DNA of 64,000 nt, from contig JAAEQW010000120.1 in assembly GCA_024231025.1 (NCBI GenBank), positions 2,324 to 66,323 on the forward strand, read 5' to 3'. This DNA is from Candidatus Omnitrophota bacterium. GTDB taxonomy: Bacteria; Omnitrophota; Gorgyraeia; Duberdicusellales; 4484-171. The position numbers were made by a program, and so were the translations under genes. Positions 25,937 through 63,964 of this stretch are shown here, one piece after another (the first letter of the stretch is position 1; each line of letters starts with the position of its first letter). The notes under the pieces were generated by a model. That model was not told the DNA's origin. It ran no database searches and saw only the letters and a list, made by a program, of their open reading frames with translations.

Positions 25937-27157
25937 TCAAGCAAATTTTTTATTCGCTGTTGAATCTGAAATATATACGGCTACAAATGATAAAAGTAAC
26001 CAGAAAAATATTGAAAGCTTTAATGAGTAGAATTGCGTATCAAAAAAAGCACCGATCAAAAAACTTATCAACCCTAAGAATAAACCTAAATATCGAAAAT
26101 CAACTCTTCGTCTCAATTCTTTGTACCCTTTCAAAAGAAGCTCCCATAAAAACCACAGAAAAGTTCCTAAACCAAAAATGCCTGTTTCCGCTAAAATCTG
26201 TAAATAACAGTTGTGGGCATAATAAGCCCCCTCTAAGTTCACCGCGTACTCTTTTACACAATCCATAAATAGCCCTAACCCCCTGCCAAACAATGGGTTG
26301 TGTTTAAACATTAGAATTGCTGCCTTCCAAAGAACAAAACGTTGGGCATCACCTCCGGCATGAAATGTAAGCAGTAATTTCTGTTCAAAAAACGGTAAAT
26401 GACTAGTTACCGCCACAAAGATTGCCGCAAATATTGCTAAAAGCACTCTGCTTTGCTTATCAGCGCTAAAAGCAACCAACAAAATAATTCCCACTAAAAA
26501 CGAAAACCAACCCGCACGCGAATAAGTAAGAAGGAGCCCCCCCATTAACATCAAAGATGCGATAACTACTATAATTTTTACCCAATTTTTTTTACTCCTG
26601 TATAAAACCCCATAATTAATAAAAAACATTGCCGTTAAATAACTGGATAAATTATTTGGATTATAAAAAGTCGCACGAATAGCATTATTCGCAGAACTTA
26701 TGGAAAATCGCCTAATAAAATCAACGCCAACTATTTTTTGATAGAAACCGTCAATACAAATTAAAATCGAAGATGCCAAGAAAAGTTTTAATAGAAAAAT
26801 GACTTTCTTTTTAGTTAAAAATACCTGGGCGAAATAGAACAATAAAACTCCCTCGCCCCATTTAAAAAACCACGCAATAAAACTCTTTGAAGGCATCGGG
26901 CTAATCACCGTTGATACGGCAATTGAGAGGTAAAATATAAGCAAAGAAAGATTAATTTTATTTTGAAAAAAAAGTTTTGTTTTTGAAAGACTAAACCTGG
27001 CAAAAATCGTTCTCACCAAAAAACAAACAAGGATCGCGGTAAAGGAAATCTCAATGATAGCTGATGAGATCGGCAAAAAAAACACCAACACCACAAAAAG
27101 AAAAAAAGCTACCCTTTCCGCTTCTAAAACTATTTTATTCCTTAAGTCGCTATTCAT
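25937..27157 (-). CDS. polytopic membrane protein of the O-antigen ligase / Wzy_C family (406 aa)
   Basis: Ten or more predicted TM helices. The central LLLTYSRAGWFSFLVGIILL segment resembles the Wzy_C/O-antigen ligase conserved loop. Confidence 0.5.
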   Translation of the reverse strand: MNSDLRNKIVLEAERVAFFLFVVLVFFLPISSAIIEISFTAILVCFLVRTIFARFSLSKTKLFFQNKINLSLLIFYLSIAVSTVISPMPSKSFIAWFFKWGEGVLLFYFAQVFLTKKKVIFLLKLFLASSILICIDGFYQKIVGVDFIRRFSISSANNAIRATFYNPNNLSSYLTAMFFINYGVLYRSKKNWVKIIVVIASLMLMGGLLLTYSRAGWFSFLVGIILLVAFSADKQSRVLLAIFAAIFVAVTSHLPFFEQKLLLTFHAGGDAQRFVLWKAAILMFKHNPLFGRGLGLFMDCVKEYAVNLEGAYYAHNCYLQILAETGIFGLGTFLWFLWELLLKGYKELRRRVDFRYLGLFLGLISFLIGAFFDTQFYSLKLSIFFWLLLSFVAVYISDSTANKKFA

Positions 27158-27161
27158 AAAA

Positions 27162-28988
27162 TTATACCCGATCCGAAGAACAATAGTGCGGGACCAATTC
27201 TTTAATTATTTTTACAGTTTTTTCTGCATCCATTTTACCGGCAAGCGATTCAAGCTCTTTTATCTTCATCTGTAGTTTTCTTGAATCAAAATCATTAGGT
27301 TGAGCAATATATATCTTATCGTGCTTGGTTGTTTTATCCTCTTCAGCATTGTGCAGCATCTCTTCATACAATTTTTCGCCCCGACGCAGCCCAATAAACT
27401 CTATCGCGATATCCTCATCCGGCCTTAAGCCCGATAACGTAATTAATTCCTTGGCTAGATCAACTATTTTTATTTGCTCGCCCATATCAAGAATAAAGAT
27501 TTCTCCCCCCTTGCCAATCGCACCAGCCTGAATTACAAGTTGTGCCGCCTCAGACACCGCCATAAAAAATCTTCTAACCTCAGGATCAGTTACGGTAACC
27601 GGTCCACCGCTTTCAATTTGTTTTTTGAATATTGGAACAACTGACCCGCTTGAACCAATAACATTACCAAATCTTACTGCCATGAACTTTGTTTTAGCAG
27701 TTTTTGCTTTAGCTTGAATTTGCATTTCGGCAATACGTTTGGATGCTCCCATAATATTTGTTGGATGCACCGCTTTGTCGCTAGAGATCATAACAAAGCT
27801 TTCTACCTTGTAGTGCTCAGCGGCATACATAAAATTTCTTGTTCCGATAATATTATTCTTTACCGCAGCAATCGGGTTGCTTTCCATAAGCGGTACATGT
27901 TTATGCGCAGCAGAATGAAAAACTATTTTTGGTTTATGTTTTGTGAATGTATGCTTTAGCAAGCCAATGTCTTTAACGTCACCAATTATGGCCTCTATTT
28001 TTAAATCAGGATATTTATTGCGCAGTTCCAGCTCTAAGAAGTAAGTATCGTTTTCATTATAATCATACATTATGAGTTTAGCCGGATTGAACTTGCCTAT
28101 TTGCTTACATAGCTCACTGCCGATAGTTCCACCAGCACCGGTAACTAAAACCACTTTATTCTTTATAAAAGATGTTACTCCTTCGGTTTCGATAGTTACT
28201 GTTTCGCGACCCAAAAGATCAGCCGGGCGAACATCTCTAATTTGCCGAACGGTTACTTCTCCGGTTAATATCTTATGCAATGCAGGAACTATCTTTATTG
28301 CAGTTTCTGTATTTGCGCACTTGGATATGATATCTCTTATTAACTTCCCTCGAGCTGAAGGAATCGCAATAATTATATCGGTCGCTTCATATTTTTTTAC
28401 AATCTCTTCAATATCGGCAATCACACCCAATACTTTTATTCCCTGGATACGCGAATATGTCTTACGCCGATCATCATCAACAAATCCAACCGGTTGATAA
28501 ATTGTGCTTTTAGCGTTAATTAGCTCTCGCACAACCATTTCCCCTGCTGAACCGGCACCCACAATGATTGCTCGGCGCATATTGCAATAACGAGATTGCT
28601 TTATGCTGATCAACACTCTTGGTAAAAACCGCGACGTTGCCATAAGAAAAAGGCAGATAAGGTAATCAATCAGCAACACTGACCGGGTCATCATTTTATG
28701 CTGCGTAAAAAATACTACAACCACCAACAATAAGCTTCCAAGCGTGGTGGCCTTTACAATATTGGTTGCTTCACTAATACTGGCGTACCTAAACGACCAG
28801 CGATACATCCCGCAACAATAAAACATTATAATTCTTATACCGCTTGCCCAAAGTAAAAAAGAAACATACGCCCCAACAAGCACTTCTAAATTCCAATCAA
28901 AGCGAATCATAAAGGCTAAGAATAGCGAGATACTAATCAAAATAATATCAACTATCATCATCACCAATTTTCTTGTAGCTAATAACAT
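27162..28988 (-). CDS. membrane-anchored UDP-sugar 4,6-dehydratase of the CapD/PglF/WbpM family (608 aa)
   Basis: Four N-terminal TM helices, then a Rossmann domain (IIVGAGSAGEMVVREL), then an SDR dehydratase domain (VLVTGAGGTIGSELCKQI ... MISSDKAVHPTNIMGASKRIAE). Confidence 0.85.
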   Translation of the reverse strand: MLLATRKLVMMIVDIILISISLFLAFMIRFDWNLEVLVGAYVSFLLWASGIRIIMFYCCGMYRWSFRYASISEATNIVKATTLGSLLLVVVVFFTQHKMMTRSVLLIDYLICLFLMATSRFLPRVLISIKQSRYCNMRRAIIVGAGSAGEMVVRELINAKSTIYQPVGFVDDDRRKTYSRIQGIKVLGVIADIEEIVKKYEATDIIIAIPSARGKLIRDIISKCANTETAIKIVPALHKILTGEVTVRQIRDVRPADLLGRETVTIETEGVTSFIKNKVVLVTGAGGTIGSELCKQIGKFNPAKLIMYDYNENDTYFLELELRNKYPDLKIEAIIGDVKDIGLLKHTFTKHKPKIVFHSAAHKHVPLMESNPIAAVKNNIIGTRNFMYAAEHYKVESFVMISSDKAVHPTNIMGASKRIAEMQIQAKAKTAKTKFMAVRFGNVIGSSGSVVPIFKKQIESGGPVTVTDPEVRRFFMAVSEAAQLVIQAGAIGKGGEIFILDMGEQIKIVDLAKELITLSGLRPDEDIAIEFIGLRRGEKLYEEMLHNAEEDKTTKHDKIYIAQPNDFDSRKLQMKIKELESLAGKMDAEKTVKIIKELVPHYCSSDRV

Positions 28989-30001
28989 TTTTTCTCTTTC
29001 TCTTTAAAGGTTACCCATAAACTCAATGCCGACAAAACCGCAATTGCACTAAACGAAACTATAATTTTTAATACTGTCGCGGAACGTAAATACACACAGG
29101 CCAAAACCATCAATAAAACAAACACCAAAGAAAGCGCTCCGGTAACTTGACCGTGGCTGTAGCCCAAACCAATTGCTCTTTGATAAAAATGGCTCTTATG
29201 CGCCTTATACCAAGATTCACCTTTAATCGCTCTTCTTATTAAGGTGATCACCGTATCAAAAACAAACACTCCCGAGACAATTACCGTTGGAACCAATAGC
29301 TGTTCATGGGTTATAGCCATAAAAGCTATATAAAATCCTAAAAAATAACTGCCGACATCGCCCATAAATATTTTAGCCGGAGGATAGTTTAAAATAAGAA
29401 ATCCCGCTGTCGGCGCACAGATTGCAATACCGATGGGAATTAGATTTACTTCTTTTGAAATAAAACCAAAAAATACAAAAAAACATCCAACAGCTATTGC
29501 CTGGATCGCAGTTAAGCCATCGATACCGTCCATAAAATTATAAAAATTAGTTAGGCTAACCACCCAAAGAACAATAAAAAACGGCAATAAAAAACTCAAA
29601 TTCACATTAAAACCTAGAATATCAATCGAAGGCAAAATGCCTAAAGCAAAAACTACCGCAGCAGCCACAACTATTTGTAAGATAATTCGAATTAACGCGG
29701 GAATATGCGTGCGATCGCTATACAAACCAATTACGCTAATTGCCACCGCTCCAAGTGTAATTGTTAAATATTTACCGTAAAGAAGAGGGAAATCAAAAAA
29801 ATGCATCCCAAAAACTACCGCCAACGCACCAACAACTATCCCTAAACCACCCCCCTTTGGCGTAGGTCTAAAATGGGAACTTCTTTCGTTGGGCATGTCA
29901 ATTAAACCAAACCTTTTTGATTTTCTTATCAACCATGATCCAACCAATAGGGATAATAACCCACCTAAAAAAACCACAAGTAGGATGCCCATATAACTCA
30001 C
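28979..30001 (-). CDS. polyprenyl-phosphate HexNAc-1-phosphate transferase (WecA/WbpL/MraY superfamily initiating transferase), 340 aa
   Basis: FYNFMDGIDGLTAIQA carries the DGIDGL motif diagnostic of the PNPT family. The protein has ~10 TM helices. Confidence 0.85.
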   Translation of the reverse strand: MSYMGILLVVFLGGLLSLLVGSWLIRKSKRFGLIDMPNERSSHFRPTPKGGGLGIVVGALAVVFGMHFFDFPLLYGKYLTITLGAVAISVIGLYSDRTHIPALIRIILQIVVAAAVVFALGILPSIDILGFNVNLSFLLPFFIVLWVVSLTNFYNFMDGIDGLTAIQAIAVGCFFVFFGFISKEVNLIPIGIAICAPTAGFLILNYPPAKIFMGDVGSYFLGFYIAFMAITHEQLLVPTVIVSGVFVFDTVITLIRRAIKGESWYKAHKSHFYQRAIGLGYSHGQVTGALSLVFVLLMVLACVYLRSATVLKIIVSFSAIAVLSALSLWVTFKEKEKKCY

Positions 30002-30026
30002 TATTATAGTGAAAAAACACTAAATA

Positions 30027-30719
30027 TCAAGTATTGTTGAGATATTTCTCAACAGTGTCTAGCCCTTCGGGGACTCCCATGTCAAAAAATCTTTGACTTG
30101 TGGGAAAGGAGGTAAACTGACAATTTTCAATAAGTTGAGGAAAAATTTCCTCTTCCAATGAGCACATCTTTTTCTTGGGTATTAGGTTGACTATACTTCT
30201 TTTAAAAACAGCTACTCCGGCATTTATATGCGTATTATTGCTGTCATTTTTACCACAACCGATCACTTGATTATTACGACAAGTAATGTTACTTGGTCCT
30301 ACCTTCTTTTTGTTGTCATAGGCAACGACCATTGCATCTTTTTTGCTTTTATGAAAACTCTCTACTAGCTTAAAGTAATCTACTATCGTAATAGTATCAC
30401 CGTTCAGTAAGATAAATTCATCATTTAGTTTACTCTTAGCGTTTCTTAATGCTCCTGCGGTTCCCAATTGATTTTTTTCATAACAATAACTTATTTTTAG
30501 CCCTAATTTCTTACCATCTCCAAAGTGCGATTCAATTTTATCCCCTAAATAACTCACCAGAAGTAAAATATCATTGATTTTTTGTCGTTGCAGAAGAATA
30601 AGAAGATGTTCCAGGAAAGGCTTCCCGCAAACCTTAATCATCGGTTTAGGGGTATTGTCAGTTACGGGATTAAGACGACTACCCCTGCCGCCAGCAAGAA
30701 TTACTGCCTGAATATTCAT
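30027..30719 (-). CDS. short sugar-1-phosphate nucleotidyltransferase (HddC/RmlA-short type), 230 aa
   Basis: N-terminal MNIQAVILAGGRGSRLNPVTDNTPKPMIKVCGKPFLEHLL is the NTP_transferase G-x-G-x-R-L signature. The size fits D-glycero-D-manno-heptose-1-P guanylyltransferase-like enzymes. Confidence 0.7.
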   Translation of the reverse strand: MNIQAVILAGGRGSRLNPVTDNTPKPMIKVCGKPFLEHLLILLQRQKINDILLLVSYLGDKIESHFGDGKKLGLKISYCYEKNQLGTAGALRNAKSKLNDEFILLNGDTITIVDYFKLVESFHKSKKDAMVVAYDNKKKVGPSNITCRNNQVIGCGKNDSNNTHINAGVAVFKRSIVNLIPKKKMCSLEEEIFPQLIENCQFTSFPTSQRFFDMGVPEGLDTVEKYLNNT

Positions 30720-30738
30720 AAAGGGGTCAAATCTGTAT

Positions 30739-31701
30739 TTACAACATAACAGTCTTCATCTCTAAATTATTAACAACACTATCGTATTCCTTATCGTCCT
30801 TTATCTTTCGGTAAGATCTACTAATTGTTTCTGTCGATACTTCCAACTCTTTTGCGATATCAACATTTTGAAAATTTAGTTTTTCTCTACAATAACGCAC
30901 GACAAAACTTCTTACCTTACAATATTCATTTTGCTTGCTGTTGTATTGTTCTAATGTCATTCCAAAACATCTCAAAAACATATTTAATACATCTACTATC
31001 AACTTGGCAGGTAAACCATCCTTTAGCTCCTGCGATGAGATCTCAGATAAATCCTTTCCGAAAATAATTTGCTTGACCCTCTCTTTAAACGTATCGCTAC
31101 CTAAAACAGACGGCCAATTCGACCCTTTTAAGCGTTTTTCAAAGTCCTCTGATGCATTTCCGTGCACACATAGATTATATTCTTTCATCGCTATTTTTTT
31201 ATACTTTCCGAAATAAGATAATGCTTCATCAACACAGAACCAATTAGGCTGTTTTTCTTTACTTCCATGGTAATACTTATGGCTACTCCACTCATATATG
31301 CCTAATTTTCGTTCTAATCCTGCTTTAATTGGGTTACAGTGAATATAGCAAATGCATTCCTTAAAATAATTATCTCCATCAATTAGAATTGACTTATACC
31401 TTCCTTTAAATAATGCACCTTCCAGTTTATGTTTTTTGTTTATTTTTTGGGTATATACACCATTGATATGACGCATAACTCTTGAAATATTTGCCTCAGG
31501 AGTACTTAAAAGCAAGTGATAATGATTTGGCATCAAGCAGTACGAATATATTTTTGCATGAAATAATTTAAAAGCTTCGGAAAGAACCGATAAGAACAAA
31601 TACCGATCACCGTCGTCGATGAAAATATTTTCACGACGGCGACCGCGATTCATTACGTGATAAATAGCATCTTTATATTCTACCCTTAACGGACGTGACA
31701 T
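30739..31701 (-). CDS. IS200-like Y1 (HUH) transposase domain fused to a DnaA C-terminal-like HTH domain (320 aa); likely a domesticated transposase-derived protein
   Basis: The N-terminal 150 aa read AIYHVMNRGRRRENIF...YCLMPNHYHLLLSTPE...YIHCNPIKAGL, which gives the HxH motif and catalytic Tyr region of the IS200/RAYT family. The C-terminal region reads ...NVDIAKELEVSTETISRSYRKIK (a DnaA_C-like helix-turn-helix). Only 19 and 30 nt separate it from neighbouring genes, and no flanking inverted repeats or REP elements were seen. Confidence 0.65.
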   Translation of the reverse strand: MSRPLRVEYKDAIYHVMNRGRRRENIFIDDGDRYLFLSVLSEAFKLFHAKIYSYCLMPNHYHLLLSTPEANISRVMRHINGVYTQKINKKHKLEGALFKGRYKSILIDGDNYFKECICYIHCNPIKAGLERKLGIYEWSSHKYYHGSKEKQPNWFCVDEALSYFGKYKKIAMKEYNLCVHGNASEDFEKRLKGSNWPSVLGSDTFKERVKQIIFGKDLSEISSQELKDGLPAKLIVDVLNMFLRCFGMTLEQYNSKQNEYCKVRSFVVRYCREKLNFQNVDIAKELEVSTETISRSYRKIKDDKEYDSVVNNLEMKTVML

Positions 31702-31731
31702 AAGGAATTATACCTTTGATATTATTCAATG

Positions 31732-32919
31732 TCAAGAATACAGACTTGACCCCTTTTTTTTAAAACGTCTTTCGGTCCTCTCCCAAATTCCTTTTTGCTT
31801 GCCTAGAATTACTTCAAAAAATCCAAACAAAAGAGCTAAATTGAGGTTACAGAAATAAAATGGTATGTACACCAAAAATGGCACTTTTTTGTATTTTGTT
31901 AAACATAATCCACATATAGCTGTAGCATAAAATATTATCTGCAAAAATAAAATATACCTATAAAAATTTTGACCGAGAAGAAAGACATTTATCACCAAAA
32001 GCAAAGCAAGAATAAATGGAGCCAACCACCTCAAGACGCGATGCGACCAGTAAATAAAAGCTCTTATCCCCAAAAGCGGGCTTAAAAGTTCTAATAAATA
32101 TCTAATTGCAATATAGTGACCTGCGCCATCACGAACATGACGCTTAAACTCTCCTTGTGTAGTCGGCGCAACATATTCATACGCAACAGCTTTTTCTTCA
32201 TAAAGACACTTGAATCCTCTCTTCACAATACCCATAGATGTCATGAAATCATCATTGATAGTTCCACAAGGTAAAGATTTAAATAAATTGCGACGGATAG
32301 CATAAATTGCCCCATTAGCCCCAGCAACATAACCTAACCTGCTTTCTAACATTTTTAATTGAGTTTCATAGCGCCAATAAAAGTTTTCCCCCTTACCGCT
32401 AATCACTTCATTCGGATTTCTATAGATAAGCCTTCCGCAAACACAACCAACTGTTTCATCGTTAAAATGCTTAATTAGTTCCTTAACAGACCGCTTATCG
32501 TATTCAGTGTTGGCATCTGAAAATATTACAATTTCTGCATCAATTTTCTCCATAACGCTATTGATTGTTTGTGCCTTACCCTGTCGAGCGCACTCTAGAA
32601 AATGCAGGCAATCAATATCACTCGCTAACCTACTTACTATACGATTTGTGCCATCATTGGATCCATCAGAAGCAACCCAAATGTTTAATTGTTCGCGCGG
32701 ATAGTCAAGCAACAAGGAATTTTCTATCTTCTCCGTGATCACCTCTTCTTCGTTGTGGGCAGCAATCACAATAGCAACACTAGGGAATTGGGAAATTGCG
32801 GCAGGCTTACTGTAAACTACAAACATTTTTACTAAAATTAACAACGAAAAGTAGTAGCCAAAATAGGTGTGCATTAACAATGCTATAAAGAACCAAAAAA
32901 CAACAACAAAAAAGTTCAT
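31732..32919 (-). CDS. membrane-embedded GT2 glycosyltransferase of synthase (processive-like) type, 395 aa
   Basis: N-terminal TM helices, a GT-A domain with a D...D...D pattern (IVIAAHNEEEVI, VASDGSNDGT, VIFSDANTEYD) and an HRVLRW motif at the QxxRW position. The C-terminal region has 3-4 TM helices. Confidence 0.7.
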   Translation of the reverse strand: MNFFVVVFWFFIALLMHTYFGYYFSLLILVKMFVVYSKPAAISQFPSVAIVIAAHNEEEVITEKIENSLLLDYPREQLNIWVASDGSNDGTNRIVSRLASDIDCLHFLECARQGKAQTINSVMEKIDAEIVIFSDANTEYDKRSVKELIKHFNDETVGCVCGRLIYRNPNEVISGKGENFYWRYETQLKMLESRLGYVAGANGAIYAIRRNLFKSLPCGTINDDFMTSMGIVKRGFKCLYEEKAVAYEYVAPTTQGEFKRHVRDGAGHYIAIRYLLELLSPLLGIRAFIYWSHRVLRWLAPFILALLLVINVFLLGQNFYRYILFLQIIFYATAICGLCLTKYKKVPFLVYIPFYFCNLNLALLFGFFEVILGKQKGIWERTERRFKKKGSSLYS

Positions 32920-32927
32920 GACTATTC

Positions 32928-36846: not shown

Positions 36847-36847
36847 A

Positions 36848-37819: not shown

Positions 37820-37837
37820 TGTTGTCCTATTGAAAAA

Positions 37838-52859: not shown

Positions 52860-52874
52860 CGTGGATACCTCCTT

Positions 52875-54910: not shown

Positions 54911-55448
54911 TCAAAACCACCTCTGTTCTTTTCATCACATAATCAACCAACTTTTTAACCGATTCTGCTGCTGTTTCTTTTTCCGAATCTATTATTAGGT
55001 CCGGCATTGTCGGCGCCTCATAATCCACTCCACCAAAACCGATTAGATCGATTATTTCGCGATCTTTAGCTTTACAATACAAGCCCTTCACATCACGTTG
55101 GGTTACGCAACCTAAGCCAGCGCTAAAATAAATTTCATAAAAATTGGGTGCTAGCTTAGAGCAAGCATCGCTACGGGATACTTTAAACGGCGATATTATA
55201 GGTACCATGATGACATCATAGCTATCTTTATTTTCTTCACAAATTAAAGTAATCAAACGATTATTCTCTTTGATATCTTCCGGAGTAAAGCTCAAATGCT
55301 GGTGATACCTTTCTCGTACCTGATCGCCGTCTACGATAAATGTCATCAGACCTTTCTTTTCTAAAACTTTAGCCGCCTGCACGGCAACGGTTGTTTTGCC
55401 TGAACCGGAAAGCCCCGTAAACCAAAAAATGTTAGAGTTTTTTTTCAT
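54900..55448 (-). CDS. cysC: adenylylsulfate (APS) kinase, 182 aa
   Basis: FWFTGLSGSGKTTVA P-loop and the FIVDGDQVR segment match APS kinase. Confidence 0.9.
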   Translation of the reverse strand: MKKNSNIFWFTGLSGSGKTTVAVQAAKVLEKKGLMTFIVDGDQVRERYHQHLSFTPEDIKENNRLITLICEENKDSYDVIMVPIISPFKVSRSDACSKLAPNFYEIYFSAGLGCVTQRDVKGLYCKAKDREIIDLIGFGGVDYEAPTMPDLIIDSEKETAAESVKKLVDYVMKRTEVVLNES

Positions 55449-57622: not shown

Positions 57623-57638
57623 ATGTAGCCTGCCTTTA

Positions 57639-58838
57639 TTACAATTGTTCTTTACCAAGCACTGGTTGCAAAAATTGCTTCCCAGATATTACACGTAAAT
57701 AATACTTAAAAAATAGTTTAACCCTTAACAGATACCAAATAACATTTGTAATAATAACTTTAAATTTAGATTTTTTCAAATTGTTCCAAATGTACTGAGG
57801 AGAAAAAAATCTTAGCTCAAAACTTAATGGGAGCAAAATCAAAAACGGAACCAAAAATATATCAAAAATACCTATCTTTTTGAGAGAATAACCATAAAAA
57901 ACAAGCCGATTGTTCATAATGCAATTAAGCACGGACTTATCGTGCCAGGATAATTTTTTCTCCCAATTATTAACCAATGCTTTTGCCGACCACCCTTTAT
58001 CCTTATGTTTTGCGGTAGAAAGGGCATCCCCGTGCCACGTTAACCCAGCCCATGTCGATCTTTTTAGGCAATCATTATGAGAAATACCTAGCCATTGACA
58101 CAAACCGTTTAATACCTTGTCGTTTCCCATATCCTCTAATTTAATTGCACAATATTCGTGATTAAGCCTCTCCAAAGCTTCCACATCCGCTAAGATTCTT
58201 CTTATATAGAAATATAAGAATGCTTCGTTGTCTTTTAGCAAATCGAATTTACGCCAATGTAAAATTCCTGATACAAAATTTGCCCGAGGGTCTCTGGTTG
58301 TGCAGATAATCTTACTGGTAGGAAAATCATCCATCAGCAAATCTAAACGATCAAAACCATGTTCATGATGGAAAATAATCTTTTTGCTCTCAATATCCTG
58401 ACCTAATACAATTGCATAAGCCCCGTAAATAGCCACAAAAATAGTTTTCAAATCAAGTCTTCTGTCAACTAATAGTTGGACAAATATTTCTTTGAAGCAA
58501 GAAATATCAATATCAATGGATTTATTGCGTCCATCACCCAGCTTATTCTTTCGCTCAAATAAATCATACCTGGACTTAAACCGTTCAATAAAAAACCCGA
58601 CGAACTCATCAATAAAATCTCTAGAATCAAATTCTCCAGCCTTAACACACACCGATCTGGCCCAAAAATCATGGAATAAAAGCGACCCGTTAAAAGTAGC
58701 AACCTCTGGATGTGAATCAAGTAAACTCTGCAAGAGATCGCTGCCGGTTCTTCCGGTTGTCACTAATATATATACCGGTAAACCCAAAAGCTTTTCCATT
58801 ATTAATGCACTATCCTTTAATTTCTCATCAGTTACCAT
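57639..58838 (-). CDS. PAPS-dependent sulfotransferase with C-terminal membrane anchor, 399 aa
   Basis: The 5'-PSB-like motif YILVTTGRTGSDLLQSLL and the 3'-PB-like motif ICTTRDPRANFVSG are present. A C-terminal hydrophobic stretch reads IFDIFLVPFLILLPLSF. Confidence 0.7.
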   Translation of the reverse strand: MVTDEKLKDSALIMEKLLGLPVYILVTTGRTGSDLLQSLLDSHPEVATFNGSLLFHDFWARSVCVKAGEFDSRDFIDEFVGFFIERFKSRYDLFERKNKLGDGRNKSIDIDISCFKEIFVQLLVDRRLDLKTIFVAIYGAYAIVLGQDIESKKIIFHHEHGFDRLDLLMDDFPTSKIICTTRDPRANFVSGILHWRKFDLLKDNEAFLYFYIRRILADVEALERLNHEYCAIKLEDMGNDKVLNGLCQWLGISHNDCLKRSTWAGLTWHGDALSTAKHKDKGWSAKALVNNWEKKLSWHDKSVLNCIMNNRLVFYGYSLKKIGIFDIFLVPFLILLPLSFELRFFSPQYIWNNLKKSKFKVIITNVIWYLLRVKLFFKYYLRVISGKQFLQPVLGKEQL

Positions 58839-58888
58839 TGTTTACACATCCTTGCCTATTTTTCTAATCATAACAAAATGACAAATGC

Positions 58889-59887
58889 CTACTCATCGTC
58901 AATATTTCCAATTTTGCGATCGCTATCAGCCCATCCCAAAAAAGATGACACATAAACGATATCTAATAGCCTTTTAAAAAGCCTATAGCCTTTTTTAAAC
59001 AACCAAAATCTTAGAATTCTGTTTTTCTTGGCAGCTTGAGCAATAATTTTTAAATATTCTCTACTCTCTGCATCACTTAAAAGACCTTCTTTCTTAGCCA
59101 AATCAACAATACCACCAGCATAATCATATACCCCGTACACTAAACAAGTAACAATAGATTTGCGAAGCTTATCTTTTGCATAAGCCAGATCATTCAACTT
59201 TTTTAAATATTTAATCCAAATATCTACATGCTTAAAGTATAGCGCATCACCAAAGACTAGTTGCCCTTTACCGCCGTAATTAAAAAAAGTTTTCCTCTTC
59301 CAGTATTGCCTTCTAATATCAATAAGGGTAAAACCTTTTTCATCTAAAAATCCATCTACATCTCTAAAAACGGGCTGGTCTGTATACAATTTGAGAAATT
59401 CTACCTCGCACTGTATGCCAAAAGTATGACTCAAGCACTCTTCTGCTCCACCCTTTAGAATAAAAAGCTCCGTTCCCTGGGTATCCAATTTAATAAAATC
59501 AGCGTCTTCTAATACATTCTCGGAAAAGAGCTTATCCAGAGTGGTTATCTTATGCTCCGGAATATCTACAGTACTAATAACTTTAAATCTTTCTACCTGA
59601 GGATAATCTTCCAACACATCAAAATTAGGCCTAAGGCAAGACGACTTTCCGGACTCCTGAGAAACATAATATTTTTGCTTAACCACATTTTCATAAAGAG
59701 CATAATTAAGATACACGACTTGATCGGTCGACTTTAATTTCGTAAACTCTCTATCATCTGGTTCAAACGCAATGACCTTCATCCGCTTCGATATAACATC
59801 CCACTTTGTAGCAATTCCCCCCATAGAACCGACATCAATCAAGATATAGTGTCCCTCCAACAATTCTTCTATTAGTTTTTTCATCAC
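58889..59887 (-). CDS. FkbM-family SAM methyltransferase, 332 aa
   Basis: YILIDVGSMGGIATKW...KVIAFEPDDREF resembles the FkbM (Methyltransf_21) hhDVGAN.G...AFEP core. Confidence 0.55.
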   Translation of the reverse strand: MMKKLIEELLEGHYILIDVGSMGGIATKWDVISKRMKVIAFEPDDREFTKLKSTDQVVYLNYALYENVVKQKYYVSQESGKSSCLRPNFDVLEDYPQVERFKVISTVDIPEHKITTLDKLFSENVLEDADFIKLDTQGTELFILKGGAEECLSHTFGIQCEVEFLKLYTDQPVFRDVDGFLDEKGFTLIDIRRQYWKRKTFFNYGGKGQLVFGDALYFKHVDIWIKYLKKLNDLAYAKDKLRKSIVTCLVYGVYDYAGGIVDLAKKEGLLSDAESREYLKIIAQAAKKNRILRFWLFKKGYRLFKRLLDIVYVSSFLGWADSDRKIGNIDDE

Positions 59888-59915
59888 ATCCTACTTTCTA
59901 ATACTAGTATATAAA

Positions 59916-60677
59916 TTACCAGGCGCTCCATCCACCATCAACATTCAAAACTTCACCTGTAACATAGCTTGAATTATCTGTCGCCAAAAAAAGACAAGCA
60001 TTGGCTACATCACGCGATTTACCCCATTTTTTCTGAGGCGTTCTATCTAATGTAAATTGATAGAGATCATTTTTTTTCTGAAAACTTTCCGTGTAAGACG
60101 TCTCACAAAATCCAGGAGCGATAACGTTAACATTTATATTATAGCTGGCCCACTCTAACGCTAAACATTTTGTTAAAGATATCATGCCCCCTTTTGATGC
60201 ACCGTAAACAGAAAGATCCGGAAGCCCTAAAGTACCTACAATAGAGGCGATATTAACTATTTTACCGCACCCTTTGTTAACCATATGTTTCCCTGCTTCA
60301 CGACAAAAAAAGTATACACTATCTAAATTATTAGCCATTACCCCTTGCCAGTCTTGGGTAGTTGTATCAAGGAATTTCTTTCTAAAACGCATACCGGCAT
60401 TATTTATAAGCACATCTATACAACCAAACTTATCTACGGTTTTTACGATAAAATCTTTTACCGAAACCTCGCAAGACACATCCCCTTGGAACAACAATAT
60501 TTTATCCTCATCTAAGCTAACTTCTTTCTTTAAGGAAGAAAAATCATTTGAGTCGCGAGTAATAAGCGCTAATCTTGCTCCTTGTTCATAAAAAAGTTTT
60601 GCAACCTCTCTTCCTATTCCTTTACCAGCTCCGGTAACAACACAAACCTTATCTTTTAGTAAAAATTGATTTTGCAT
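59916..60677 (-). CDS. classical SDR oxidoreductase, 253 aa
   Basis: VCVVTGAGKGIGREVA, NIAS...YGASK. Confidence 0.85.
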   Translation of the reverse strand: MQNQFLLKDKVCVVTGAGKGIGREVAKLFYEQGARLALITRDSNDFSSLKKEVSLDEDKILLFQGDVSCEVSVKDFIVKTVDKFGCIDVLINNAGMRFRKKFLDTTTQDWQGVMANNLDSVYFFCREAGKHMVNKGCGKIVNIASIVGTLGLPDLSVYGASKGGMISLTKCLALEWASYNINVNVIAPGFCETSYTESFQKKNDLYQFTLDRTPQKKWGKSRDVANACLFLATDNSSYVTGEVLNVDGGWSAW

Positions 60678-60678
60678 T

Positions 60679-61857
60679 TTAACTCCTTATAAGATAATTA
60701 AATGCCTGGGCAACCAGATCATCGGAAACATCACCATAGACCCCGCATTCTCCTATCACCTGCGGCAAAACAAATCGTAACTGACTATTTTTTTTCTTTT
60801 TGTCTTTATAAACATTCCTCACGCATTCATCAATAAGATCTTGTCGCCGAAAATTTATTGCCTTTGAATCAACCCTTGTCGGAAGACCATATTTTTTAAG
60901 TATTGCCTCATGTTCGCGCAAAATATTATCTGACTTGCCAAAATATTTAACAGCAATATACGCCGCACCAATCATCCCAATAGAAACACCCTCTCCATGA
61001 CGATAAGTCTCAGACAAAACATCAGTTGATATCTCTACAGAATGACCCAATGTATGTCCATAATTCAACCTTAATCTTTTCCCTTGCTCTCTTACATCAC
61101 CCGATACATGGTCAAGCTTTATTTCAATGGCACGAGACATAATATACAACAACGCATCCTGTTGGCGACTTAATACTTTTTCTGAGTTAACATCAAGATA
61201 CGCAAAGAGCTCTTTATCCGCAATAACTGCACATTTTATTATTTCTGCCAAGCCTGACCTAAAATCTCGATCGGACAAAGATTTAATAAAATCAAAATCA
61301 ATCACATCAAGCATGGGATGATAATAATTGCCTATAGCATTAATTGTTTTTCTGAAATTTATAGCTACCTTTCCTCCAATAGAGCTGTCAATCATCGCCA
61401 TTAGAGTAGTCGGAATGCTAATAAAATTAACTCCCCTCAGGTAAGTGCTTGCTACAAAACCAACCAAATCACCAATAACTCCGCCACCAAAAGCAATAAT
61501 TGTAGAATCACGCGAAAAGCCCTTTATTTCAAGAAACTCATAAAGGCCAATTGCACTAATGATAGTTTTGTTATGCTTACCCGACTTTAAAAGGTGGGTA
61601 TGCACTTGATATTGAGCACAAGTTAAGGCATCTTGAACCTTACCTTTAACTAAATCTTCAAAATAAGGATCAAAAACAATAAGAACTTTTTTATTCTTTG
61701 TTTTCGAGTTTAGATTCTCTATGAGGCTATCCGGTAACAGATCTCGACCCAGAAGTATATTATAGCAAGAACTGTCCAATTTAACTTCATAATTATTATA
61801 CATCACATTGCTCTTCATTATCTTTCTCCTATACCGCAAAAAGTCCGGTATCAACAA
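60679..61857 (-). CDS. 3-dehydroquinate-synthase-like (DHQS family) sugar-phosphate cyclase/oxidoreductase, 392 aa
   Basis: GGGVIGDLVGFVASTYLRGVNFISIPTTLMAMIDSSIGGKVAINF and LNYGHTLGHSVE match the AroB/sedoheptulose-7-P cyclase metal and NAD binding blocks. The true substrate cannot be decided by eye. Confidence 0.75.
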   Translation of the reverse strand: MLIPDFLRYRRKIMKSNVMYNNYEVKLDSSCYNILLGRDLLPDSLIENLNSKTKNKKVLIVFDPYFEDLVKGKVQDALTCAQYQVHTHLLKSGKHNKTIISAIGLYEFLEIKGFSRDSTIIAFGGGVIGDLVGFVASTYLRGVNFISIPTTLMAMIDSSIGGKVAINFRKTINAIGNYYHPMLDVIDFDFIKSLSDRDFRSGLAEIIKCAVIADKELFAYLDVNSEKVLSRQQDALLYIMSRAIEIKLDHVSGDVREQGKRLRLNYGHTLGHSVEISTDVLSETYRHGEGVSIGMIGAAYIAVKYFGKSDNILREHEAILKKYGLPTRVDSKAINFRRQDLIDECVRNVYKDKKKKNSQLRFVLPQVIGECGVYGDVSDDLVAQAFNYLIRS

Positions 61858-62491
61858 TTAGCTCCGCAATCTTAAAATCTTCAGGGGTATCGATGTCATG
61901 CCCCTCAAAATGGTTAATATTCTTAACGTAAGGTCGAGTTGAAATTCTTTGCCCTGTCTTCTCGAAAACCTCTCTCTTAAACACATACAAACTTGACTGT
62001 TCCGCGACCACCGGATCTATATCCTGAGTGCGCGGGGTTGGCTTATCAAGAGAATAATTCAAAGGCTTACCGTTAAACCAGCAAAACTTGTTTATTGCAT
62101 AAGCGGTAAAGCTTGAGTCGTATTCATCAGAATTAACTCTGCCCAAACAATCAACAATAGTTTCAGGCTTCAAAAAGGGTGATGTAATATGTAAAAGAAC
62201 TACTGTGTCCGCGCTATCCAATTTTAAAAATTCTCTTATCAGGTCTTGAATCGTTGTATTTTGATCATCAAGGGTATCCGGCCGCTTTAAAAATTTATAT
62301 TTTAGCCCAGGCTGAATATGTTCACAAATAGATGGCTCGGAAGCAAAAATTACAACCTCATCAATATCCGAAACTTTGTTTAAAGCACGCACTGTATAGT
62401 TCACCAAAGGCACTCCTCCCAACTCTTTTATATTCTTAGAAGGCAAACGCTGACTGTTAAGCCTCGACGGTATAAACCCCACTGTTCTCAT
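61829..62491 (-). CDS. acylneuraminate/ulosonic-acid cytidylyltransferase (NeuA/PseF-like CTP_transf_3), 220 aa
   Basis: VGFIPSRLNSQRLPSKNI matches the I-P-A-R-x-x-S-x-R-x-P-x-K-N motif of CMP-NeuAc/CMP-Kdo synthetases. Confidence 0.7.
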   Translation of the reverse strand: MRTVGFIPSRLNSQRLPSKNIKELGGVPLVNYTVRALNKVSDIDEVVIFASEPSICEHIQPGLKYKFLKRPDTLDDQNTTIQDLIREFLKLDSADTVVLLHITSPFLKPETIVDCLGRVNSDEYDSSFTAYAINKFCWFNGKPLNYSLDKPTPRTQDIDPVVAEQSSLYVFKREVFEKTGQRISTRPYVKNINHFEGHDIDTPEDFKIAELIVDTGLFAV

Positions 62492-62503
62492 AGCTTGTCC
62501 TCC

Positions 62504-63964
62504 CTATTGCAAAGATTTTCTGATAAAATTATAAAAATTACTACTGTTGTCTTCCTCATATCTAAATCGACTAACATCGATATCTTTTTTCTTGATGCCT
62601 TTGAGCCTGCTTAACATAAAATTTATAGCGTCATAAGACTTATCCTTGCTATTCACATAACAAACAGGAAAGATATCGGGTGATTGATAATTATTAAACA
62701 CTCCAGTCTTAAAATGATTGTACCTATCCCATTTATCATAGAGCAATACCGGTATTCTATTTATCAATGCCTCATCGATAACCGTAGATGAATAGCTTAT
62801 TAACATATCTGAAGCTGAAAGAACATCCTCAAATTTTCCTAATCTGCTTATACTGTACTTACTTGACTCTGGTAAAAATAATTTCATCTCCTCGTCACTT
62901 AAATCAAAGCCGGGATGCACTCTTATGATTAATTTGGTGTTATCCATTTTGTTTATCGCACCAACCACATCAGCTAGCCCCGATAAATATTCATCCACTG
63001 TCTCTAGAAAATAAAATCTTTCAGACCCTATGGGCTTAACTGTCGTAGCGTGGAGAATCACTTGTTCATCCGGCAAAAAACTTAAGTGAGCCTTCTTTGT
63101 AAACTTATCTGTTTCAGTTATATCAGCAAAAATGAGTGGGGCCGTTAACACCTCTTTATTTTTTATCCATTCATACTTGTTCTTGAAATATCGAAAATGC
63201 TCTTGCTGCACAGGAGTGCTCAGAGCTACATGACTATAATCTCCAAGCATAAAACCTCTACACAGATTAAAAATCGATATCTCATGATACTGATTAATTG
63301 GCATAGGATGAGTGCCATGAGAGATAAATAAAGATGGCCTGTCAAGTTTAGGCAGCAACTCAGCGGCAACATACCACAATCCTCTACCAAATGGCGATAT
63401 CAACAGAACAATATTAAATTTCTGAGTCAAAGCTTTAAACTTATAGGACCACTCTACCATCTGACGAAGACGCCCCACAAAAACACTCCTCTTTTGGTCC
63501 ATAACTTGTTTAACGTTAACTCCATTATAGGTAAAGACACTTTCGCATTCGTCATCAAATAATTTTTCTAGACTTTTGGTAACGCCGGCTTGGTCTATTG
63601 AGCTATCCCGACTTTGCACAAAGTTAATATCTATAAAAAAGACACCTGAAAATAATCCCCATATTAACCCACCATATCTCTGATACCACTTCAATCGCTT
63701 ATCATCTTTAAGAATTAAGAAGCTACTATGTGAGTTTTTAAATTTAACCTTATCTACCAATACTTTGAATCCATAGCTTAACGTAGGTAGCACAACCAGA
63801 ACCTTATTGAAAACTTTTAAGTACGCCTTTAATAAATCCAAAGAAAAATTATACATCGCCGACGCGTTCTCTTGCGTTCCGGTAAATCCTTTTTTCGCGC
63901 ACTCTTGGGAGTCCCCAAAATAATGAAATTTGATCTTATGCTTATCCGCGAACTTCTTTACCAA
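62504..63964 (-). CDS. GT-B-fold TagF/KpsC-like transferase (paralogue of 44481-45917), 486 aa; the upstream region runs to the window edge
   Basis: IIRVHP...DMLISYSSTVIDEALINRIPVLLYD resembles the TagF HP and ITDYSS motifs. Confidence 0.35.
   Translation of the reverse strand: MVKKFADKHKIKFHYFGDSQECAKKGFTGTQENASAMYNFSLDLLKAYLKVFNKVLVVLPTLSYGFKVLVDKVKFKNSHSSFLILKDDKRLKWYQRYGGLIWGLFSGVFFIDINFVQSRDSSIDQAGVTKSLEKLFDDECESVFTYNGVNVKQVMDQKRSVFVGRLRQMVEWSYKFKALTQKFNIVLLISPFGRGLWYVAAELLPKLDRPSLFISHGTHPMPINQYHEISIFNLCRGFMLGDYSHVALSTPVQQEHFRYFKNKYEWIKNKEVLTAPLIFADITETDKFTKKAHLSFLPDEQVILHATTVKPIGSERFYFLETVDEYLSGLADVVGAINKMDNTKLIIRVHPGFDLSDEEMKLFLPESSKYSISRLGKFEDVLSASDMLISYSSTVIDEALINRIPVLLYDKWDRYNHFKTGVFNNYQSPDIFPVCYVNSKDKSYDAINFMLSRLKGIKKKDIDVSRFRYEEDNSSNFYNFIRKSLQ

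Follow-up and report, generated by a model that had tools for sequence, protein, structure and literature searches.

What would an uncultured bacterium build with 38 kb of closely packed genes running in one direction, and would it be one product or several? The question was raised by a DNA stretch of 64,000 nucleotides (nt) from a Candidatus Omnitrophota bacterium (GenBank assembly GCA_024231025.1, contig JAAEQW010000120.1, positions 2,324 to 66,323; the whole stretch is called the window hereafter), for which an initial annotation had proposed a glycan 'super-operon' of at least 37 co-directional genes over about 38 kb. The listing of open reading frames (ORFs) clearly showed 37 consecutive ORFs on the minus strand between positions 25937 and 63964, reproducing that extent exactly; the interpretation attached to it was supported in part. 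Thirty-six of them are glycan genes, while the remaining one is an inserted RAYT transposase gene. With a probability of about 0.7, the region represents most, not all, of one locus for the biosynthesis of a polyprenol-linked surface glycan, built from six portable cassettes. Surface glycans of uncultured, host-associated nanobacteria (Omnitrophota, the candidate phyla radiation [CPR]) are essentially uncharted and probably mediate attachment and evasion. As the locus shows, they are assembled with portable cassettes from a common pool.

Gene content and packing of the locus

All 40 products of the minus-strand run, which includes three genes downstream of the glycan genes, were scanned with Pfam and NCBIfam. 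The scans covered ORFs of at least 80 amino acids (aa) in the run and among the flanking genes, short antisense ORFs inside the run being left out. Start codons were refined with the help of ribosome-binding sites, domain boundaries, homologues and NCBI gene calls; the start of the SIS isomerase gene, for instance, was moved to the ATG at 51898, which is preceded by a GAAGGAGG ribosome-binding site. The gene neighbourhoods of homologues were examined in 30 further loci (labelled L001 etc.).

The glycan identity of the run was upheld by its gene content, and its packing is tight throughout. Four-nucleotide overlaps were found at eight of the 36 junctions (six ATGA, two GTGA) and longer overlaps (-10 to -38 nt) at four; gaps of 1–19 nt separate the genes at 18 junctions and gaps of 21–50 nt at the last six, the widest intergenic gap being 50 nt. 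The coding share of positions 25937–64000 is 99%. The earlier description of the junctions as gaps of 1–20 nt or 4-nt overlaps is literally correct for 26 of the 36 and accurate in substance, all of them being tight. The last ORF, which begins to be read beyond the window and ends at 62504, has no upstream in-frame stop inside the window, and alignment with a homologue of 642 aa (L011) indicated that about 136–148 N-terminal residues are absent. The glycan locus thus continues past 64 kb and is truncated by the window. The GC content ranges from 0.34 to 0.43 throughout and gives no compositional sign of recent cassette acquisition, and Rfam and tRNA scans detected no RNA element inside the locus.

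In the order of transcription, six cassettes can be distinguished (Table 1). Cassette A (>64000–58889) encodes a protein named Unk640 that matches no known family, a NeuA/PseF-like cytidylyltransferase, a paralogue of 3-dehydroquinate synthase (DHQS), a short-chain dehydrogenase (SDR) and an FkbM methyltransferase. Cassette B (58838–54900) holds a sulfotransferase, a fusion of pyruvate kinase (PK), PUA_2 and ATP sulfurylase domains (PK-Sat), and an adenosine 5'-phosphosulfate (APS) kinase. The 12 genes of cassette C (54910–44481) run from a Gfo/Idh/MocA oxidoreductase to a GT-B-fold protein (Unk478), likewise of no known family, and include an HpcH aldolase and KdsB. Cassette D (44484–39121) combines genes for a cytidine diphosphate (CDP)-activated C-methyl-6-deoxyhexose with a family 2 glycosyltransferase (GT2). 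Cassette E (39118–31732) consists of a protein with 12 transmembrane (TM) segments (TM12), an epimerase, a GT4, two B12-radical-SAM enzymes and a GT2 with 5 TM segments. Finally, cassette F (30719–25937) encodes a sugar-1-phosphate nucleotidyltransferase, a WecA/MraY-family transferase, a PglF/WbpM-type dehydratase and a Wzy_C protein.

This inventory resembles the Wzx/Wzy loci for O-antigen or exopolysaccharide (EPS) that use WbpL/WecA and WbpM/PglF, such as the clusters of Pseudomonas aeruginosa. Common features are the PNPT initiator, the membrane-anchored dehydratase acting on UDP-N-acetylhexosamine (UDP-HexNAc), GT2 and GT4 enzymes, nucleotide-sugar pathways encoded in situ, the Wzy_C membrane protein and the co-directional tight packing. 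In contrast to these loci, the window is devoid of Wzx and Wzz (Wzx being predicted by synteny only), the locus is about twice the usual size, and it additionally encodes the synthesis of 3'-phosphoadenosine 5'-phosphosulfate (PAPS), two pathways to cytidine monophosphate (CMP)-activated acids, B12-radical-SAM enzymes and the RAYT insertion. Its class is an ordinary one, within which the 'super-operon' stands out by its unusual length.

Recurrence of the cassettes in other loci

Each cassette recurs alone or recombined in Nitrospirota, Brocadiaceae, Saganbacteria and CPR bacteria. In L004, 13 genes are collinear with the window at 44–74% identity: those for Unk640, the cytidylyltransferase (CMPtr2), the DHQS paralogue, its SDR (SDR3), Unk478, the NanM-like protein, RfbF, the C-methyltransferase, the dehydratase, the reductase, GT2, TM12 and the epimerase. 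L004 is devoid of FkbM, of cassette B and of most of cassette C, HpcH included, and carries a methyltransferase and Wzx immediately upstream. Cassette C is present in L027 (Ga0265292_1000159, 1–11400) in the same order, GFO-MT23-SIS-FSA-HpcH-HAD-SDR2-SDR1-KdsB-2HADH-Unk478, at 40–74% identity; in that copy the NanM-like gene is missing, and about 1.9 kb of additional sequence separates the HAD and SDR genes. In L001, PK-Sat, APS kinase and sulfotransferase are joined to Wzx, HpcH, Gfo/Idh, MT23 and a KdsB-like gene, and in L002 PK-Sat and APS kinase are joined to NeuB-type genes.

The triad of DHQS paralogue, SDR and CTP_transf_3 gene occurs in the window and in L004, L005/L016, L008/9, L010, L011, L014 and L037. 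These include a CPR Zambryskibacteria genome (L008/9, with Wzm/Wzt and FkbM), a Saganbacteria locus with Wzx and three 640-aa paralogues (L010), a Brocadiaceae locus (L011) and an Fdt-type, O-antigen-like locus with Wzx (L037). In L006/L007 (3784–6608) the frame of Wzx, methyltransferase, a 669-aa protein, CMP-transferase and, further on, Unk478 is kept, with an HMGL-like::MptE-like fusion protein and a PfkB sugar kinase in the place of DHQS and SDR. The acid-forming step of cassette A thus seems to be interchangeable.

As judged from these neighbourhoods, the locus is a mosaic of six portable, recombining cassettes, the linkage of which is modular and not fixed. A normal unlinking of the sub-modules, which the initial annotation had named as one of the observations that would speak against it, was encountered by half: the cassettes were always found in glycan loci, and their combinations vary. 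Hypervariable polysaccharide cassettes have been reported from a genome survey of the Omnitrophota (bioRxiv 10.64898/2026.06.07.730766), and environmental consortia commonly contain glycoconjugates that are sulfated and bear ulosonic acids (PMC10483923).

Alternatively, several independent glycan pathways, for example for O-antigen, capsule or EPS, and protein O-glycan, could lie side by side, rather than the super-operon of one polymer. Cassettes are separate or recombined in L001, L004, L006, L027 and L037, yet A, D and E were kept collinear in L004. In the window, both CMP-transferase cassettes have a GT-B partner of their own, and the polymerase/ligase step has two candidate membrane proteins, one of them from the Wzy_C family, which includes PglL-type protein O-oligosaccharyltransferases; against this stands a single polyprenyl-phosphate initiating transferase in the whole 38 kb. 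Similarly, consensus promoters were detected inside the run, while all junctions measure at most 50 nt, 12 of them overlap and none contains any of the terminator-like sites listed. Independent pathways are thus considered unlikely, and one mosaic locus for one glycan is preferred.

Predicted assembly of the glycan

Gene content, family assignments, tight packing and the recurrence of the cassettes were observed directly; for the single-glycan pathway we infer the substrates, the order of the steps, the export route and the transcription units. The chain would begin with a 6-deoxy-HexNAc on undecaprenyl phosphate, through the action of the PglF/WbpM-type dehydratase and the WecA/WbpL-family phosphotransferase. 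The chain would then be extended by the GT4, the two GT2s and the two novel GT-B proteins with an R-x-H-P motif, from donors made in situ. The first donor would be a CDP-activated C-methyl-6-deoxyhexose, obtained via RfbF, dehydratase, C-methyltransferase, cupin and reductase. The second is predicted to be a CMP-activated 3-deoxy-2-ulosonic acid, made by the FSA/transaldolase, SIS isomerase, HpcH pyruvate aldolase, HAD phosphatase and KdsB, and presumably tailored by three dehydrogenases and by methyltransferases. The third may be another CMP-activated acid, formed by the DHQS paralogue, its partner SDR and the NeuA-like cytidylyltransferase and then methylated by FkbM. The sulfotransferase would sulfate the glycan with PAPS made on site by PK-Sat and APS kinase, and the B12-radical-SAM enzymes could introduce further C-modifications. 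Export probably depends on a Wzx (or ABC) gene located just past the window end, and TM12 and the Wzy_C protein would polymerise the glycan and ligate it to lipid or protein.

Several points weigh against this reading. All six cassettes together were found in none of the relatives' loci compared. A flippase, a chain-length regulator and an outer-membrane exporter are all absent from the window. TM12 is a candidate only, as it gives no assignment to Wzy, Wzx or GT-C. The HpcH aldolase, FSA, SIS, HpnJ-like and WecA-family enzymes score under their equivalog cutoffs, and the substrates of all the enzymes are predicted ones. Finally, strong promoter matches at the RAYT insertion and before the wecA-family gene argue against a single transcript.

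Table 1. Products encoded by the glycan locus, in the order of transcription, with the evidence for their assignment (scores in bits where a cutoff is given; % values are identities).
Cassette	Product	Positions	Strand	Evidence
A	Unk640, C-terminal ~498 aa of a ~640-aa soluble protein	62504..64000	-	Gene start ~64.4 kb, outside the window; 'IIRVHPGF' motif
A	CMPtr2, NeuA/PseF-like cytidylyltransferase (CTP_transf_3)	61829..62491	-	PF02348 4.8e-19; PseF 82 bits, cutoff 206
A	DHQS paralogue	60679..61818	-	TIGR01357 318.5 bits, cutoff 305
A	SDR3, short-chain dehydrogenase	59916..60677	-	adh_short_C2 9e-64
A	FkbM-family methyltransferase	58889..59887	-	PF05050 1.9e-13; TIGR01444 above cutoff
B	Sulfotransferase	57639..58838	-	Sulfotransfer_3 3e-9; Sulfotransfer_1 8.5e-6
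B	PK-Sat, pyruvate-kinase barrel + PUA_2 + ATP sulfurylase fusion	55445..57622	-	PK 222, PUA_2 123, ATP-sulfurylase 229 bits
B	APS kinase	54900..55448	-	TIGR00455 144.8 bits, cutoff 138.7; 4-nt overlap with PK-Sat gene
C	Gfo/Idh/MocA sugar oxidoreductase	53885..54910	-	Pfam/NCBIfam; 62% in L027, 44% in L001, same cassette
C	MT23, S-adenosylmethionine (SAM) methyltransferase (Methyltransf_23)	52875..53888	-	Pfam; beside Gfo/Idh gene in L001 and L027
C	NanM-like putative sugar O-methyltransferase	51912..52859	-	TIGR04371 45.1 bits, cutoff 44
C	SIS-domain sugar-phosphate isomerase	51293..51898	-	SIS_2 2e-8; GmhA 45 bits, cutoff 209
C	Fructose-6-phosphate-aldolase (FSA)/transaldolase-family enzyme	50551..51270	-	TAL_FSA 6e-37; TIGR00875 146 bits, under cutoff; 74% in L027
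C	HpcH/HpaI class-II pyruvate aldolase	49809..50588	-	PF03328 7.6e-33
C	HAD phosphatase	49172..49807	-	HAD_2 9e-12
C	SDR, mannonate/gluconate-5-dehydrogenase-like	48379..49158	-	Pfam/NCBIfam; 61% in L027
C	SDR	47615..48364	-	Pfam/NCBIfam; 62% in L027
C	KdsB-type CMP-ulosonate synthetase	46830..47618	-	NF009905 272 bits (cutoff 255); NF003952 251 (cutoff 193)
C	D-2-hydroxyacid dehydrogenase (2HADH)	45901..46833	-	2-Hacid_dh_C 1e-48; adjoins Unk478 homologues in L027, L029, L031
C	Unk478, 471-aa protein	44481..45896	-	GT-B fold; 'RLHP' motif
D	NDP-hexose 4,6-dehydratase-like SDR	43555..44484	-	Pfam/NCBIfam
D	RfbF, glucose-1-phosphate cytidylyltransferase	42792..43553	-	TIGR02623 360 bits, cutoff 300
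D	NDP-sugar C-methyltransferase, TylC3-type	41596..42825 (start 42825 or 42804)	-	Methyltransf_14 1.7e-21; Methyltransf_23; weak Methyltransf_13
D	RmlC/FdtA-like cupin (epimerase or ketoisomerase)	41122..41574	-	dTDP_sugar_isom 5.5e-6, 26.6 bits (cutoff 27); FdtA 7e-4, 19.8 (cutoff 23)
D	NDP-sugar epimerase/reductase	40074..41102	-	Pfam/NCBIfam
D	Soluble GT2 glycosyltransferase	39121..40077	-	PF00535 2e-30
E	TM12, 12-TM membrane protein	37838..39118	-	12 hydrophobic segments; no Pfam match
E	NAD-dependent epimerase/reductase	36848..37819	-	Pfam/NCBIfam
E	GT4-family (GT-B) glycosyltransferase	35746..36846	-	Glycos_transf_1 4e-40
E	B12-binding radical-SAM enzyme	34373..35749	-	Pfam/NCBIfam
E	B12-binding radical-SAM enzyme, HpnJ-like over full length, not equivalog	32928..34376	-	TIGR03471 391 bits, cutoff 578
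E	Membrane GT2, 5 TM segments	31732..32919	-	RVLRW motif
between E and F	RAYT/IS200-like element	30720..31756 (gene 30739-31701)	-	Y1_Tnp 2.8e-15, 57 bits (cutoff 23)
F	Sugar-1-phosphate nucleotidyltransferase	30027..30719	-	NTP_transferase 2.4e-25; no NCBIfam equivalog reached
F	Polyprenyl-phosphate HexNAc-1-phosphate transferase (WecA/WbpL/MraY family), initiator	28979..30001	-	PF00953 3.4e-35; 11 TM segments
F	PglF/WbpM/CapD-type membrane-anchored UDP-HexNAc 4,6-dehydratase	27162..28988	-	Polysacc_synt_2 2.7e-118; CoA_binding_3; 4 TM segments
F	Wzy_C-domain membrane protein	25937..27157	-	PF04932 7e-23; 9 TM segments

The DHQS paralogue and its CMP-transferase cassette

At least three cassettes of the locus are biochemically uncharacterised, namely the one of the DHQS paralogue and its CMP-transferase, the pyruvate-aldolase route to a CMP-ulosonic acid and the PK-fused ATP sulfurylase. 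The value of the locus lies in these three widely distributed cassettes, and chiefly in the first. Anammox bacteria amenable to enrichment carry the same cassettes, and the glycan products could be searched for in them directly.

Among solved structures the paralogue matched DHQS at 1e-57, and EEVS, DOIS and DDGS at 1e-33 to 1e-27. Alignment to the V. cholerae enzyme revealed that all the DHQS catalytic motifs are kept (DSSIGGK, N, E..K, K, R..LN.GHT.GH, HGE and DKK). An identity as EEVS, DOIS or DDGS was rejected, as the protein is much closer to true DHQS and retains these motifs. The score above the TIGR01357 cutoff, the complete motifs and the NCBI annotation as 3-dehydroquinate synthase would be equally expected if the gene were the housekeeping aroB of the shikimate pathway, located in the operon by chance. 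Its genomic context speaks for another role. Orthologues of 52–64% identity, flanked by the same SDR and CTP_transf_3 gene, were found in seven other glycan loci from at least five phyla, one carrier being the CPR Zambryskibacteria genome, and no other shikimate-pathway gene lies nearby. To our knowledge, Zambryskibacteria generally lack aromatic amino-acid synthesis. The clade comprises at least 120 cluster representatives at ≥49% identity, and the eight contexts sampled, from 64% down to 52% identity, are all glycan loci. A housekeeping aroB is thus most improbable, and because the sampled contexts are glycan loci with the same SDR and cytidylyltransferase, we conclude that the paralogue is probably a dedicated enzyme. 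It shares the fold and the NAD+/metal chemistry with shikimate DHQS and with the cyclitol sugar-phosphate cyclases EEVS, DOIS and DDGS, and keeps all the DHQS active-site motifs, but it forms a separate clade and lies in a glycan locus with cytidylyltransferases instead of a shikimate or aminocyclitol cluster.

The partners of the paralogue are equally conserved. SDR3, which is 65–68% identical and next to the DHQS paralogue in L004, L005, L008, L010 and L011, appears to be its obligate partner. The nearest solved structures of CMPtr2 are CMP-Neu5Ac synthetases (2e-13); its orthologues, 60–74% identical, adjoin the DHQS paralogue in L004, L005, L010 and L011, and in L006 the HMGL-like replacement. 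In the CPR locus L008 an FkbM gene likewise follows the run of DHQS, SDR and CMP-transferase. An FkbM methyltransferase or radical-SAM enzymes, together with the novel proteins bearing the H-P motif, often accompany the conserved cassette. As in nonulosonic-acid cassettes (NeuA/PseF/LegF with NeuB), a NeuA/PseF-like cytidylyltransferase stands beside presumed transferases, directly downstream of Wzx in relatives. The acid-forming enzyme differs, being here the DHQS paralogue with its SDR, without NeuB, and in L006 an HMGL-like aldolase with a PfkB kinase.

As the simplest chemistry, the following may be envisaged: 3-deoxy-D-arabino-heptulosonate 7-phosphate (DAHP) or a close analogue would be converted by the DHQS paralogue to a dehydroquinate-type product, which would then be reduced by the SDR, methylated and activated with CMP. 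It is tentatively proposed, as a rather unlikely but far-reaching possibility, that the cassette in this way delivers a dehydroquinate/quinate-type carbocyclic alpha-hydroxy acid for installation on surface glycans. Such an acid would be a carba-analogue of a 3-deoxy-2-ulosonic acid; C1 of quinate, which carries OH and COOH, mimics the anomeric centre of the latter. A point against the proposal is that a CMP-linked carbocycle, with its saturated tertiary carbocyclic centre, would make a poor and chemically awkward donor of glycosyl groups. In a milder alternative, the paralogue possibly performs just the oxidation and phosphate elimination on an ulosonate phosphate, yielding a deoxy or unsaturated heptulosonic acid. 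A literature search for the pairing of DHQS with a cytidylyltransferase returned no relevant description. If this is true, Omnitrophota, Nitrospirota, anammox Planctomycetota, Saganbacteria and CPR bacteria would build their glycans in part from units of a new class, and shikimate-pathway chemistry would there be put to a new use.

Two putative GT-B transferases with an R-x-H-P motif

Unk640 and Unk478 had been described as two TagF/KpsC-like transferases. This membership was rejected at the family level: neither Unk478 (471 aa) nor the Unk640 fragment (498 aa) gave any Pfam match even at E≤10, Glyphos_transf (PF04464) and Capsule_synth (PF05159) included, and Unk640 had no NCBIfam match. Unk478 has 92 homologues, all annotated as hypothetical, in Omnitrophota, Nitrospirota, Brocadiaceae/Scalindua and Thermodesulfobacteriota. 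An AlphaFold (AF2) model obtained from a 54-sequence alignment (pLDDT 93.7) was assigned by Foldseek to the GT-B superfamily, with UDP-GlcNAc 2-epimerases/NeuC and GT4 glycosyltransferases at E ~5e-7; TagF and KpsC were both outside the top 50. The family alignment showed R346 and H348 to be invariant within the 'RLHP' motif, and at the corresponding position the Unk640 fragment reads 'RVHP'.

An H-P motif at this position is a hallmark of GT-B enzymes that depend on cytidine nucleotides, such as bacterial sialyltransferases, beta-Kdo transferases and TagF. The functional part of the earlier guess is therefore reasonable, and Unk640 is a candidate CMP-dependent transferase and Unk478 a candidate transferase for CMP-activated acids, the shared R-x-H-P motif being the only feature that points to a cytidine-nucleotide donor. 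Their neighbourhoods are as follows. Unk640 is 40–49% identical to proteins of 627–669 aa located directly upstream of the CMP-transferase in L004, L005, L006, L010 and L011, and homologues of Unk478 adjoin either type of CMP-transferase cassette in many loci. Like the sialyltransferases and the beta-Kdo transferases (GT99/GT107), they have the R-x-H-P motif where the C-terminal Rossmann domain begins; unlike them, the two families have no Pfam or CAZy assignment.

The predicted ulosonic-acid cassette

The ulosonic-acid chemistry anticipated for the locus was supported by KdsB, which scores above two NCBIfam cutoffs (and just below that of TIGR00466, with 147 bits against 155), and by the second, NeuA/PseF-like cytidylyltransferase. 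Cassette C reads as a Kdo-like route from isomerase to C–C bond formation, phosphatase and KdsB, with predicted substrates. No KdsA (DAHP_synth_1) or NeuB was matched in the window, and an HpcH/HpaI aldolase is found in its stead. This aldolase scored 143–156 bits with the HpaI, GarL and YfaU models, every one under cutoff, and is kept in L001 (37%) and L027 (62%). Together with the FSA/transaldolase it may stand in for KdsA, which depends on phosphoenolpyruvate (PEP).

The SIS isomerase, HAD phosphatase and KdsB occur together as in the Kdo pathway (KdsD-KdsA-KdsC-KdsB), and the gene of a putative dedicated GT-B transferase follows immediately downstream. Differences are the class-II pyruvate aldolase and FSA/transaldolase in place of KdsA, and the addition of four oxidoreductases and two or three methyltransferases, which are likely to tailor the ulosonic acid. 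The product is unlikely to be Kdo itself. No relevant literature on HpcH-based ulosonic pathways was found. Heptose chemistry, which had also been suggested, was not supported: its sole basis is the SIS domain, far under the GmhA cutoff, and a heptose kinase is absent from the window.

The sulfation cassette

Sulfotransferase, ATP sulfurylase and APS kinase were all identified, as expected from the sulfation that had been predicted. The sulfurylase is part of the PK-Sat protein; its domain matched ATP-sulfurylase at 5e-68, and the full protein reached 368 and 309 bits with the NCBIfam models, just below their cutoffs of 387 and 323. The catalytic motifs of the PK domain (Arg/Asn/Ser, Lys/Glu, Asp and Thr) are intact. 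Most likely this domain would regenerate ATP from ADP at the expense of PEP and thereby drive the synthesis of PAPS.

A total of 3556 homologues were obtained at E≤1e-10, and among the matches listed all 120 have the three-domain architecture. Carriers belong to Omnitrophota, Deltaproteobacteria, Brocadiaceae and Bdellovibrionales, and database labels read only 'sulfate adenylyltransferase' or 'pyruvate kinase'. No description of a PK-sulfurylase fusion was found in the searchable literature. The combination of ATP sulfurylase, APS kinase and PAPS-dependent sulfotransferase in a glycan locus is shared with NodPQ/NodH of rhizobia, sulfated EPS clusters of cyanobacteria and Sat-APS kinase fusions. 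The N-terminal fusion of the sulfurylase to a pyruvate-kinase barrel sets the present system apart from them; this architecture is widespread in metagenomes.

The CDP-sugar, membrane and initiator cassettes

C-methylation was borne out by RfbF, scoring above its cutoff, with the TylC3-type C-methyltransferase alongside. The cupin of cassette D is 58–59% identical in L017, L024 and L025. Four methyltransferase-fold proteins were counted in the locus where at least five had been announced; with the two B12-radical-SAM enzymes, the possible methylases amount to six. These two enzymes would account for the radical-SAM tailoring that had been proposed. L005, L006, L010 and L011 have three to six genes each for B12-binding and SPASM radical-SAM enzymes among their glycosyltransferase genes, and radical-SAM tailoring appears to be a general trait of these glycan loci.

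The initial annotation had also listed a synthase-type GT2. A GT2 with five TM segments is indeed present, with SDGS, SDAN and NDD motifs, but its type is ambiguous, as RVLRW replaces QxxRW, PgaC gives 84 bits (cutoff 422) and lipid-directed GT2s look alike. This resemblance would also suit a pathway in which part of the locus makes a small glycolipid or a cyclitol-type secondary metabolite, hopanoid-like or a lipid-linked cyclitol, instead of a polymer. The HpnJ model matches a radical-SAM enzyme over its full length and HpnA matches the epimerase with 97 bits, yet both are far under the equivalog cutoffs (391 against 578 bits for HpnJ; cutoff 368 for HpnA), and squalene-hopene cyclase (shc), HpnG, HpnH, HpnI and HpnK are absent from the window; a hopanoid cluster was rejected on these grounds. 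A DHQS-family cyclase combined with a radical-SAM enzyme is known from the aminocyclitol chemistry of BtrC/BtrN, which the DHQS-family cyclase and radical-SAM-SPASM genes of the relatives recall. In every case, however, the neighbours of the DHQS paralogue are cytidylyltransferases, genes resembling those of glycosyltransferases, and Wzx or Wzm/Wzt. A small-molecule product is thus regarded as very improbable in comparison with a polymeric surface glycan.

The WecA-type initiator was recovered as a member of the WecA/MraY family by its PF00953 match; it is not a WecA equivalog (79 bits with the WecA model, cutoff 326). Of the Wzy/ligase-like proteins announced, one is a Wzy_C protein, whereas the second, TM12, matches no family. 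The Wzy_C family spans O-antigen ligase, polymerase and O-oligosaccharyltransferase, and the PF04932 match is indistinct among these roles. The TM12 family has 203 representatives with invariant Q147, R190, P191, P281 and R300. A weak Wzy_C match was found in three of 66 aligned members, and hhalign detected no profile similarity between TM12 and the Wzy_C protein of the window. The AF2 model of TM12 (pLDDT 91.8) had no significant match in the Protein Data Bank by Foldseek, the top, insignificant TM-scores being those of GT-C enzymes. As L004 holds both Wzx and a TM12 orthologue, TM12 is not the flippase; the best guess is a polymerase or a GT-C-like enzyme.

Export genes

In agreement with the initial annotation, no Wzx, ABC exporter, aminotransferase or acetyltransferase was matched in the scanned ORFs, and the same holds for Wzz, MOP/Polysacc_synt flippases and Poly_export (OPX) proteins. 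KpsM/T, Wzm/Wzt and KpsC/KpsS (ABC2_membrane, ABC_tran, Capsule_synth) also gave no match in the window, in which respect it differs from ABC-dependent (Kps, group 2) capsule loci. Wzx is encoded one to three genes upstream of the window-end cassette in L004, L006/7, L010 and L037, and a Wzm/Wzt pair occupies this place in the CPR relative L008. Because these five relatives carry export genes just upstream of cassette A, the absence of Wzx is probably an effect of the window edge.

RAYT insertion and transcription units

Inverted repeats of 20 nt (30720–30739 and 31737–31756, matching at 19 of 20 positions) enclose the RAYT gene, which separates cassettes E and F, and a third copy of the repeat, with 0 expected by chance, is located at 516–535. 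The protein reached 74 bits with NF047646 (REP_Tyr_transpos), just below the cutoff of 80, and has a C-terminal extension of about 180 aa with a weak helix-turn-helix signal. The upstream arm contributes the final codons and the stop codon to the membrane GT2 gene, and also the -35 box of a perfect TTGACA-17-TATAAT promoter (12/12 of the sigma-70 consensus). The Y1 (IS200-like) transposase gene between short inverted repeats, with a further copy elsewhere in the window, is typical of REP/RAYT elements. This one differs by its C-terminal extension, by its location exactly at an operon gene junction and by the consensus promoter it provides.

Over both halves of 24–64 kb the number of promoter-like sites equals the shuffle expectation. 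Terminator-like sites number 12 in 44–64 kb (14.4 expected) and 24 in 24–44 kb, the latter somewhat above expectation (14.1, sd 3.5); none of those listed lies in any junction between glycan genes. Strong minus-strand promoter matches were obtained in two junctions, the 12/12 match at 31735..31707 and an 11/12 match at 30030..30003 just before the wecA-family gene. The tight packing is compatible with long transcripts. The RAYT insertion and the promoter near the wecA-family gene point to no fewer than two or three transcription units, and the final four or five genes are probably transcribed from promoters of their own.

Neighbouring genes

The glycan had been proposed as ligand or coat partner of a neighbouring giant protein, a 5291-aa FecR/Ig/fn3 protein (1672–17547). 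This was not supported, as a divergent signalling operon lies between (18130–24005, plus strand, encoding a TPR protein, a TPR-fn3 protein and a CHASE2-adenylate/guanylate cyclase) and the giant gene has its own riboswitch. The latter is a c-di-GMP-I riboswitch (RF01051, 17584–17669, minus strand, 72.7 bits, E 2e-12), 37 nt upstream of the giant gene, which is thus probably under c-di-GMP control. The only conceivable link would be the occurrence of protein O-oligosaccharyltransferases in the Wzy_C family. In a survey of giant genes of Omnitrophota, their flanks were found to encode secretion and glycoside hydrolases, not glycan synthesis (bioRxiv 10.64898/2026.06.07.730766).

The three minus-strand genes downstream of the glycan genes (24153–25896) encode two stand-alone cyclic-nucleotide (cNMP)-binding-domain proteins (24833–25896), directly downstream of the Wzy_C gene, and a small Ig-like protein. 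A FecR-domain protein beside a CHASE2 cyclase is a recurring pairing. The CHASE2 cyclase operon and the two cNMP-binding proteins form a cyclic-nucleotide signalling neighbourhood between the giant gene and the glycan locus.

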